The notes under the pieces were generated by a model. It saw only the letters and a program-made list of their open reading frames with translations, was not told the origin of the DNA and did not search any database. Below are positions 36,707-39,716 of a DNA stretch of 64,000 nt, piece after piece. The stretch's first letter is position 1, and each line of letters opens with the position of its first letter. A program made the position numbers and the translations under genes. The stretch comes from Eledone cirrhosa (Eukaryota): positions 275,714,001 through 275,778,000 of the forward strand of contig OZ024740.1 in the NCBI GenBank assembly GCA_964016885.1. The letters are read 5' to 3'.

Positions 36707-36877
36707 ATATATATATATATATATATATATATATATATATATATATATATATGTGAATATAGACATAGAATATTCGAAAATATTCTGTATGTTTATAATA
36801 AACATTTTGAAGACCTAATCGCTATAGAATAGAATACGTCACGTATTACAATTAGATTCTCGATAAAAGCAAGGGAA

Positions 36878-36920
36878 GTAATCTACGCGTTTCATTCTCG
36901 TTAGAAATCATCAGGACTAC
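36878..36920 (-). ncRNA. Type I hammerhead ribozyme motif, unit 1
   Basis: GUAGUC-CUGAUGA-U-UUCU-AACG-AGAA-U-GAAA-CGCG-UA/GAUUAC; stem I continues past an internal loop into a perfect 16-bp helix (36856-36871/36929-36944). Confidence 0.82.
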
Positions 36921-37187
36921 ATATCCAGTGCTTTTATCGAGAATGACACAGCTAGAGACTTATAGAATACTTAGCTGTGTACAGGAACTGGTTTGAAAGA
37001 GCGGTTGCCGGTCCGGCAGAAATTAGAAATTGGAATAAATGCTCTGAAATAGCGATATATATGTGAATATAGACATAGAATATTCGAAAATATTCTGTAT
37101 GTTTATAATAAACATTTTGAAGACCTAATCGCTATAGAATAGAATACGTCACGTATTACAATTAGATTCTCGATAAAAGCAAGGGAA

Positions 37188-37230
37188 GTAATCTACGCGT
37201 TTCATTCTCGTTAGAAATCATCAGGACTAC
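37188..37230 (-). ncRNA. Type I hammerhead ribozyme motif, unit 2
   Basis: Same as unit 1, offset 310. Confidence 0.82.
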
Positions 37231-37497
37231 ATATCCAGTGCTTTTATCGAGAATGACACAGCTAGAGACTTATAGAATACTTAGCTGTGTACAGGAACTG
37301 GTTTGAAAGAGCGGTTGCCGGTCCGGCAGAAATTAGAAATTGGAATAAATGCTCTGAAATAGCGATATATATGTGAATATAGACATAGAATATTCGAAAA
37401 TATTCTGTATGTTTATAATAAACATTTTGAAGACCTAATCGCTATAGAATAGAATACGTCACGTATTACAATTAGATTCTCGATAAAAGCAAGGGAA

Positions 37498-37540
37498 GTA
37501 ATCTACGCGTTTCATTCTCGTTAGAAATCATCAGGACTAC
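37498..37540 (-). ncRNA. Type I hammerhead ribozyme motif, unit 3
   Basis: Same as unit 1, offset 620. Confidence 0.82.
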
Positions 37541-37807
37541 ATATCCAGTGCTTTTATCGAGAATGACACAGCTAGAGACTTATAGAATACTTAGCTGTGT
37601 ACAGGAACTGGTTTGAAAGAGCGGTTGCCGGTCCGGCAGAAATTAGAAATTGGAATAAATGCTCTGAAATAGCGATATATATGTGAATATAGACATAGAA
37701 TATTCGAAAATATTCTGTATGTTTATAATAAACATTTTGAAGACCTAATCGCTATAGAATAGAATACGTCACGTATTACAATTAGATTCTCGATAAAAGC
37801 AAGGGAA

Positions 37808-37850
37808 GTAATCTACGCGTTTCATTCTCGTTAGAAATCATCAGGACTAC
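37808..37850 (-). ncRNA. Type I hammerhead ribozyme motif, unit 4
   Basis: Same as unit 1, offset 930. Confidence 0.82.
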
Positions 37851-39716
37851 ATATCCAGTGCTTTTATCGAGAATGACACAGCTAGAGACTTATAGAATAC
37901 TTAGCTGTGTACAGGAACTGGTTTGAAAGAGCGGTTGCCGGTCCGGCAGAAATTAGAAATTGGAATAAATTAGAAATTAGAATATGGAATATATATATAT
38001 ATATATATATATATATATATATATATATATATATATTATATATATATATATATATATATATTATATATATATATATATATATATATATATATATATATAT
38101 ATATATATATATACACATGTATATATGATGACAATGATATACATATATATATAAATATATATGCGTGCATATACATATACCATACATATACCACATATAT
38201 ATATATATACACATATCATACATATACATACACACATATATATCATCATCCTCATCATTTAACGTCCATCTTCATGGGTAGGACAGATTGACCCTTAGGG
38301 AGAAAAACAGGTAAGAGGACCATGTTTAGTTCACCCGAGGCAGATTTTTGCTTGGTTTCTATGCAAATATATATATATATATCATCATCATCACTGTTTA
38401 GCTTCCAATTTTCCACATTAGGATGGGTTACACGTGGTGATGAGAGGTAGTGGTGATCTTAGGTAGTGTGGGTGCATGTACTATGATGGTGAGATTTAGT
38501 TTTCTATTTTTAGTCTTCGCTACTTTATCCCATGTCTCATTGGGTCTACCTCTTTCCTGCATATCTATACCATTATGGTCTTTTCTTTTGCACACTCCAC
38601 TCTTTAGATATATTCAACAATACCACTTCTTTGATAGTATAAGTTTCTTGTCTTCTTTCTGTACTGGAGTAAAGTTGCATGAATGTCATTCTTTTTTTTT
38701 CTGGGCTTGAGAAGTAAAGGGTCTGTAGGGCTGCTTGATAACTGTCAGGAGGGAAGCTTACATACAGGTTAGATTTGTTTCATGCACTGTATTATCACTG
38801 CCAGCGCTAGCATCTGCCAAATAACCAACACAGGTCTCTTTTACTATAGAGTGAGGGTGGGGAAGACATATTTATATACATGAATGCTGAAGCACATGCG
38901 ACACACAAGGCACTTATATAATGGGATGGGAGGATGATGTGTGTCTCCATAGGAGAGCATAGCAGAGTTTTCTTTACAAGGTGTGTTGGTGGGGGTGGGA
39001 GGTTAGGAACAAAATGGTTTCTAGCAGCTTGCCTGCTTTTGTTCATTCAATATTCAGCAAACGAAATTGAATAAAAGAATGTTCTAAATGGCATCTCATT
39101 CAGAAAATTAAGGCTAAGAGCTTAAATGTAATATCTAAAGACTACAATTATAAGTTAAGACTGAGATTTAAACATTAGAATTAAAAACTTAATGGTAGGC
39201 AAAAGCAACCAAAACATCTATAAGCTATAATTTACAATAGTAATTAAAATTAAAATGTTAAAAATCAGAAAAACAAAATAAAAACGAATTGTATAATGTC
39301 ACAAAATTTTAAAGTTGTAAAGTTGTTCTTACTATGCTTGAGCATTCGCAGGTGTTCCTTCAAACATGTTATCTAGTTGATGGTCGACAAACATTTTGCT
39401 TGGGATTTACACAATCACAGCAGCTTCTTAATTCTGGGTATTAACATAAGAATGTAATAGATATATTTATTAAAGATGTGGGATACTCCCAATGTAGAAA
39501 ACCAACTGCACTTACAATCAGGGATACAAAATTTGATTTTTCATGGTGGCCACTGGTAACATCATTTTCTATCTTTAAGGAACTTTAATAGATTTTGAGA
39601 AGCTATTTTGTAACAACTAACACTAGATACAGTTATTTTCTGTGCTTGAGCATCCCACATCTTCTATAAATTTATTTCCTCAGTGCTTTGTAAGTTCAAA
39701 TGATTGAGCTTCACAC

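Follow-up and report, generated by a model that had tools for sequence, protein, structure and literature searches.

What kind of element places several identical copies of a short unit head to tail inside a simple (AT)n repeat, and how does it arrive there? The question is raised by a locus in the window, i.e. the whole 64,000-nt stretch of Eledone cirrhosa DNA analysed here (contig OZ024740.1, positions 275,714,001 to 275,778,000), in which a sequence-only reading had described an array of 310-bp units, each with a hammerhead ribozyme. We propose, as the probable answer, that this array is a young non-LTR hammerhead retrozyme, whose predicted circular monomers are likely to have been copied round and round into (AT)n tracts by the reverse transcriptase (RT)-endonuclease of a Penelope-like element (PLE).

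The array in the window and its predicted ribozyme

An exact match run places the tandem array on the minus strand at 36745-37970, a span of 1,226 bp that amounts to 3.95 units, the fourth unit thus being 14 nt short. The period is 310, with 100% matches and no indels between units. The exact period and perfect identity described earlier are hence borne out, while the extent has to be revised: rather than four complete units at 36751..37990, the array stops at 37970 and is followed by about 20 nt of duplications. As had been noted, (AT)n is present on both its left and right sides. The array region has a GC content of 0.39 and, in agreement with the previous description, lacks a credible ORF: there is no stop-to-stop frame of at least 100 aa within it, and two frames of at least that length begin near its right end, extending mostly through (AT)n. 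Likewise, a frame scan of the array detected no ORF combining RT and GIY-YIG domains, the trait of autonomous PLEs. The features of the locus are listed below, with RNA positions numbered from the first base after the predicted cut (RNA position 1 is 37193, counting down).

36745..37970, minus strand: retrozyme arm of 3.95 identical 310-nt units, with the RNA 3' end at the left (RNA 139) and a 5' truncation at the right (RNA 154)
36878..36920, minus strand: type I hammerhead copy 1, predicted cut 36884/36883 (sequence, motif and circular fold)
37188..37230, minus strand: hammerhead copy 2, predicted cut 37194/37193 (motif)
37498..37540, minus strand: hammerhead copy 3, predicted cut 37504/37503 (motif)
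37808..37850, minus strand: hammerhead copy 4, predicted cut 37814/37813 (motif)
36884..37193, minus strand: predicted 310-nt monomer between two cuts, with two more at 37194-37503 and 37504-37813
36856..36944, minus strand: stem I internal loop and 16-bp extension, recurring every 310 nt (circular fold; compensatory changes in a sister family)
36767..36786, minus strand: UUCG-capped 8-bp hairpin (RNA 98-117), just upstream of the A site (circular fold)
36745..36753, minus strand: 'A' start site, the outer end of the window arm, where the unit's own (AU)4 tract is joined to host (AT)n
37029..37064, minus strand: 'tail' between two inferred RT start sites (RNA 130-165), recurring every 310 nt (end positions of loci); where a locus has two arms, the partner arm has its outer end at the 'T' site (37029)
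37971..37990, minus strand: 5' junction with short same-sense duplications of RNA 159-176, without an inverted second arm
36705..36744: (AT)n target, left part
37989..38113: (AT)n target, right part

The minus-strand CUGAUGA core starts at 36914, 37224, 37534 and 37844, and by motif all four units carry the complete hammerhead core that had been claimed for them, with the cut predicted at 36884/36883 and then every 310 nt. Helix II reads UUCU/AGAA with a basal U.U and is followed by GAAA; helix III comprises 2 bp within the palindrome ACGCGU, and the cleavage triplet is GUA. In a circular fold the helices named in the earlier description are recovered with pair probabilities above 0.5: the 6-bp stem I, its 16-bp extension (RNA 13-28 with 250-265), the UUCG hairpin (98-117), and further helices at 60-65/139-144, 176-180/184-188 and 214-224/237-248. 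On this model the stem I extension would hold the ends of the monomer together. The circular monomer has a folding energy of -67.8 kcal/mol (z = -4.8 against 100 dinucleotide shuffles), and the plus strand is about as stable (z = -5.3), so that folding energy cannot pick the strand.

An Rfam search yielded no hammerhead match at E <= 1, its only hits being (AT)n matches to microRNA models. Helix III is not formed in the minimum-energy fold, and the palindrome ACGCGU could pair between two ribozymes instead. A precedent is presented by the axolotl retrozymes, for which a dimer mode of cleavage is reported (PMC7229834); by analogy with amphibians, self-cleavage probably works best as a dimer via the palindromic helix III. 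The U-U at the base of helix II, which had been raised as a caveat, carries little weight: U.U is the majority state of the family, with A in its place (position 287), making A-U, in 3,967 of 16,349 units, and the axolotl hammerhead HHR_Amex2, with U.U at the same position, is reported to cleave (PMC7229834).

Elsewhere in the window, a 698-aa open frame at 34309-36405 (plus strand) with an RVT_1 domain (E 5e-32) and a PHD-like finger represents a LINE fragment, the (GAT)n tail of which leads into the (AT)n holding the array; this LINE is a neighbour and not a partner.

Genomic spread and two-armed insertions

Pattern searches across the 3.0-Gb genome recovered 4,055 matches to the exact 37-nt core of the window, 16,349 to a degenerate core and 16,613 units when the catalytic positions of the core were left free, with no matches to reversed control patterns. 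Exact junctions between an outer end and (AT)n were counted 492 times at RNA 139, 708 times at 130 and 980 times at 165, which makes 1,200 A ends and 980 T ends. These counts imply at least 1,200 loci, and mean locus size puts the number at ~1,700. The expectation of dispersed arrays is thus upheld and confinement to a single locus is contradicted by the 16,613 units. As a non-coding 310-nt tandem with a type I hammerhead motif, dispersed and without LTR organisation, the family conforms to the published definition of a non-LTR retrozyme. Unit-specific differences amount to 4.9e-4 per base, and so low a figure indicates a very recent burst.

The perfect identity of the four units in the window might by itself suggest that the array was created by the assembly. 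There is practically no chance of this: more than 100 loci have locus-specific haplotypes and unique junctions, and both the 310-nt unit and its head-to-tail joint are found in public runs of four studies, a result that excludes an assembly artefact and has no bearing on RNA circles. In three of these runs (X1, X2 and X6) a closed or near-closed 310-nt contig of the window haplotype only was observed (window 36760-37100); the window core makes up about a quarter of genomic units, and run X3 has 659 variant contigs. The kinds of runs X1-X3 and X6 are unrecorded, contigs drop variants, and a closed contig may equally reflect a circle or a genomic tandem.

The organisation of the insertions was examined in 20 loci taken via internal motifs, i.e. 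without regard to their ends, all sampled retrozyme loci lying on contig C1. Seventeen of them consist of two multimeric arms arranged head to head, with the 5' ends meeting centrally and the 3' ends pointing outward; two are one-armed and one is cut by a gap. In 17/17 two-armed loci one outer end lies at RNA 126-139 (A) and the other at 163-170 (T). The same rule is seen in the 229 ends listed on the first 284 Mb of contig C1, 138 of which form 69 facing pairs (91 are unpaired): all 69 pairs are mixed A/T, against an expectation of 49% (p = 6e-22). The outer ends lie at RNA 130/139 and ~165, i.e. 26-35 nt apart. In contrast to these two fixed sites, the inner (5') ends are scattered over the unit, with a distribution that is not quite uniform (p = 0.003), and meet with an overlap of 1-6 nt in 52 of 95 junctions. 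The permuted outer start points that had been anticipated for dispersed arrays are accordingly not what is seen. The window copy is a minority one-armed insertion with an A arm only, and the two-arm, two-start-site layout, not being visible in it, was missed by the sequence-only reading.

Either arm may be the longer one, the T arm being so in 52 of 95 two-armed pairs, most of which were picked through their ends; snap-back second-strand synthesis was rejected on this ground. Priming at the ribozyme cut was likewise rejected, given outer ends at 130-139 and ~165. Alternating AT of at least 8 nt starts at least one flank in 87 of 92 two-armed loci, and both flanks in 74 of them. Apparent target-site duplications (23/92) lie within the range obtained in shuffles (15-26), and those at L032 (14 nt) and L050 (15 nt) look real. 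In several loci, variants beside the A site (126C, 127C, 119G/131T; L204-L211, L216, L218) accompany shifted A ends (118-126), which suggests that the start point depends on local sequence.

One monomer per insertion and constraint on the ribozyme

For the comparison of arms, units with more than nine differences, which are hairpin-junction misalignments, were dropped before counting, and arms shorter than 60 nt were excluded from pairing. Among 81 two-armed loci informative at 14 common variants, which define 15 haplotypes, both arms carry one haplotype in 79; sharing between arms in 10,000 shuffles had a mean of 14.0 and a maximum of 27. Further, 16 locus-private variants (15 substitutions and 1 deletion) occur without exception in every unit that covers them, in one arm as in the other, extending to 24 of 24 units in L074; a monomer derived from a random unit would be expected to bring about 0.12 private substitutions each, i.e. 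about 12 in 95 loci. Conversely, where both arms cover a stretch, its unit-specific variants (81 in all) have no mirror counterpart in the other arm. The presence of private variants in every unit of both arms indicates that every insertion goes back to a single monomer. There is thus good support for one monomer having been copied repeatedly. The simplest form for such a template is a covalent circle, and the single-haplotype pattern backs the earlier proposal of a recent rolling-circle insertion.

An origin of the arrays at the DNA level, by which short PLE-type insertions were later amplified in minisatellite-like fashion through slippage, unequal exchange and gene conversion between arms, has on its side that local amplification is the reading favoured by Li, Clavereau and Pollet (2026; 10.64898/2026.07.22.740005). 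Later expansion does occur in the present family: in L051 and L065/L203, the two longest loci (8.8 and 15 kb), the same variants come back at irregular intervals, which suggests that these loci grew once inserted. As a general explanation we regard it as very unlikely, because private variants are common to both inverted arms while the 81 unit-specific changes have not been converted, because the scattered inner ends show 1-6 nt of microhomology, and because arms range from 0.2 to more than 20 units in loci that are only 0.05% diverged.

Inherited variants spare the catalytic core and the helices. The commonest fixed variants are at N7 (284), 10.1 (287), loop 2 (294, 295) and wobble-compatible stem sites. 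Only 3 of 30 fixed substitution types break a pair and none falls in the core, against 48 of 115 singletons that break a pair or the core (p = 0.001). Genome-wide, any of 11 core positions is changed in 89 of 16,613 units. Damage arising after insertion would by itself be expected to account for 73 such units, and unhindered movement of core-dead monomers would bring the number to 166 +/- 37 (P = 0.007), the neutral expectation assuming that the private-variant rate of the sample holds genome-wide.

An older sister retrozyme family (~320 nt; 858 exact T ends; 219/310 positions matching) has a conventional hammerhead, the same two-arm layout and the same start-site module. Its copies (loci L131-L160, L082 and L218) are 72-97% identical to one unit, and the alignment reveals base changes that compensate each other in helix II and in the extension of stem I, together with a C3-G8/U3-A8 exchange. 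A third, short (AT)n-inserting family (L117:4216-4330, L118:1183-1420, L120:8000-8200), without a normal type I stem I, shares ~26 nt of hammerhead core and the U.U helix II with the 310-nt family, and a module swap between the two is possible. An apparent 80-nt homology to L117/L120 was discarded, being mostly the inverted junction of another family, with only the ~26 nt of core and helix II in common. A hammerhead-like core at position 10207 of the window (plus strand; CUGAUGA...GAAA with a long helix II) has near-identical counterparts in L117 and L118 and would belong to another repeat family.

Two alternatives retain PLE-type priming and differ from a circle in the form of the template. 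In the first, the same double priming takes place on the uncleaved linear multimeric transcript of an existing array and the hammerhead is incidental. An anole PLE studied in vitro provides a parallel, as it did not need its hammerhead, used unprocessed RNA and initiated internally (Frangieh 2024, PMC11167929), and the ribozyme described here looks weak as a monomer. Mirrored patterns, as expected from such a template, are found at L063, where one variant is mirrored at the same unit in both arms, and at L171, where both arms switch haplotype after the second unit. Copying of whole arrays would, however, be expected to yield ~36 mirrored variants, against this one substitution and one haplotype switch, and it cannot fix a new variant in every unit, which is what the 16 private variants display; the depletion of core changes also speaks against it. 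We accordingly consider a linear multimer unlikely as the general template. The exceptions themselves, together with L207 (a clean haplotype switch in one arm only) and L218 (where one arm but not the other is fixed for a variant), call for template switching or else for a template that is linear or dimeric. L171 is compatible with a coupled enzyme that moved from one circle to another as well as with a linear template of mixed units, and the switches at L171 and L207 possibly reflect template switching between circles. Periodic variants, which would prove a multimeric circle, were not found in the sampled loci.

In the second alternative, the template is one self-cleaved, unligated monomer with its ends held by stem I, the enzyme jumping the nick in each round. 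Such a template accounts equally well for the single haplotype and for selection on the core, the 22-bp stem I keeps the ends together, and template switches do occur (L171, L207). Template jumps are usually imprecise, which counts against it: 1,027 cut-site junctions are crossed without a single indel, and the 5' ends of arms are not gathered at the cut, with 4 of 204 lying within 5 nt of it. Moreover, related retrozymes accumulate as covalent circles, as reported in PMC7229834. A nicked template is thus improbable, and we favour the ligated circle.

Relationship to retrozymes and Penelope-like elements

Non-LTR retrozymes have been described in many animals, among them coral, mussel and amphibians, and their mobilisation by PLEs has been proposed (PMC7229834; 10.64898/2026.07.22.740005). 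The 310-nt family resembles them in its ~300-nt non-coding, low-GC units with one type I hammerhead each, its thousands of copies, its U.U as in HHR_Amex2, its short palindromic helix III as in HHR_Amex1 and the presence of PLEs in the same genome. For the published retrozymes cleavage and circles are reported, whereas in the present family both are predicted from sequence; among nine Xenopus retrozyme dimers, one cleaved in vitro (Li, Clavereau and Pollet 2026; 10.64898/2026.07.22.740005). Related retrozymes are ligated by RtcB, and Cervera and de la Pena (2020) proposed circles as templates for a borrowed RT, without demonstration in the account given (PMC7229834). Conversely, head-to-head arms, paired fixed starts and one haplotype per insertion are seen here and are not described for published retrozymes in the portions of those accounts drawn upon. 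Our literature search found no description of the 310-nt family, of a cephalopod retrozyme or of a two-armed single-monomer footprint; supplements, Repbase and Dfam, which could hold the family, lay outside this search. In the main text of the O. vulgaris repeat annotation (PMC13282606) the terms 'ribozyme' and 'satellite' are absent.

Close parallels to the insertions are found in endonuclease-bearing PLEs, the signature of which is an inverted 5'-truncated copy together with a 30-40 nt tail (Craig 2021, 10.1101/2021.04.23.441226; Arkhipova 2013, PMC3846280). Common to both are the head-to-head inverted 5'-truncated copy, the one-ended tail, AT-rich or (TA)n targets, two adjacent internal initiation sites and a type I hammerhead. 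Unlike PLEs, the 310-nt family is without an ORF and its arms are long perfect multimers of one monomer. Biochemically, a PLE protein for which a dimeric form is predicted was shown to cut AT-rich DNA on both strands and to extend each of them, with reverse transcription starting at a pair of neighbouring internal positions in the RNA that delimit the tail (Frangieh 2024, PMC11167929). As reported there, the strands did not differ noticeably in start site in bulk, whereas each insertion of the 310-nt family has one of each; and whereas Arkhipova 2013 attributes the inversion to self-priming on an antisense template, the inner ends here are scattered and either arm can be longer.

A further mechanism worth comparing is that of L1. 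In L1 twin priming one RNA is copied from two target 3' ends, and microhomology serves to link the resulting cDNAs; this is a minority outcome with a variable second site and a linear RNA. Unlike it, the 310-nt family has putative double priming as the rule, two fixed sites and multimeric products.

A search for the partner was directed at the 10,596 GIY-YIG candidates in the genome, 150 of which were scored. BLAST of 50 GIY-YIG loci found no homology to the 310-nt unit, matching only neighbouring non-autonomous repeats, whereas homology to pLTRs is reported for Xenopus retrozymes (Li 2026). The end motifs and 5' flanks of 17 unpaired arms showed no clear retrozyme-PLE chimera. In most of the sampled PLE families, separate copies share 92-99% identity, which makes these families older than the 310-nt one. 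One of them (L111:2773-8815, with L112, L118, L120, L121 and L125) combines an RT, a CxxxCxxC-type linker and GIY-YIG; we call it a Neptune-type PLE, a name taken from the linker described in Craig 2021. It has ~1.07-kb pLTRs, a U3-A8 hammerhead with an ACCGGU helix III, a 66-nt tail and (AT)n targets, ends in TTTCTAAT adjoining (AT)n, and shows one A end and one T end in 3/3 two-armed loci. Given the absence of homology to the 310-nt unit, the 66-nt tail and its greater age, it is not identified as the partner.

Putting these observations together, we envisage that the retrozyme RNA would be transcribed, would self-cleave in dimer mode to monomers and would be ligated into circles. A PLE enzyme, probably a dimer bound to one RNA, would cut both (AT)n strands and extend each 3' end, using the A site (130-139) for one and the T site (~165) for the other. 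Each cDNA would pass the ligated cut site many times, halting at a variable point, and a short stretch of microhomology would then join the two cDNAs; at the locus in the window, the A-site copy alone would have survived. A stronger version of this proposal, on which we remain evenly divided, is that the insertions record the mechanism of PLEs themselves: an RT-endonuclease dimer takes up a single circle made by the ribozyme and, with two active sites 26-35 nt apart, copies that circle in parallel from both ends of the (AT)n break.

The kind of element is already known, i.e. a non-LTR retrozyme; the mechanistic record that it provides is unusually clear. The origin of the inverted arms and tail of PLEs is still described as undefined, and more than 1,000 insertions of a very young family yield precise predictions: there should be two start sites, with a different one used at each DNA end, every insertion should stem from one monomer, and an intact core should be needed. 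The 310-nt unit is a substrate for the existing in vitro PLE assay, by which the long-assumed step of circle copying becomes testable, and an RT able to turn a small circle into kilobase concatemers at a chosen repeat could be put to use as a tool. For the host genome itself, the family adds ~5 Mb of long perfect palindromes. If the stronger proposal is true, one event would explain the inverted repeats and the tail of all PLEs, and the insertions would constitute genomic evidence for an animal circular RNA as a retrotransposition intermediate, with the ribozyme required for its spread.
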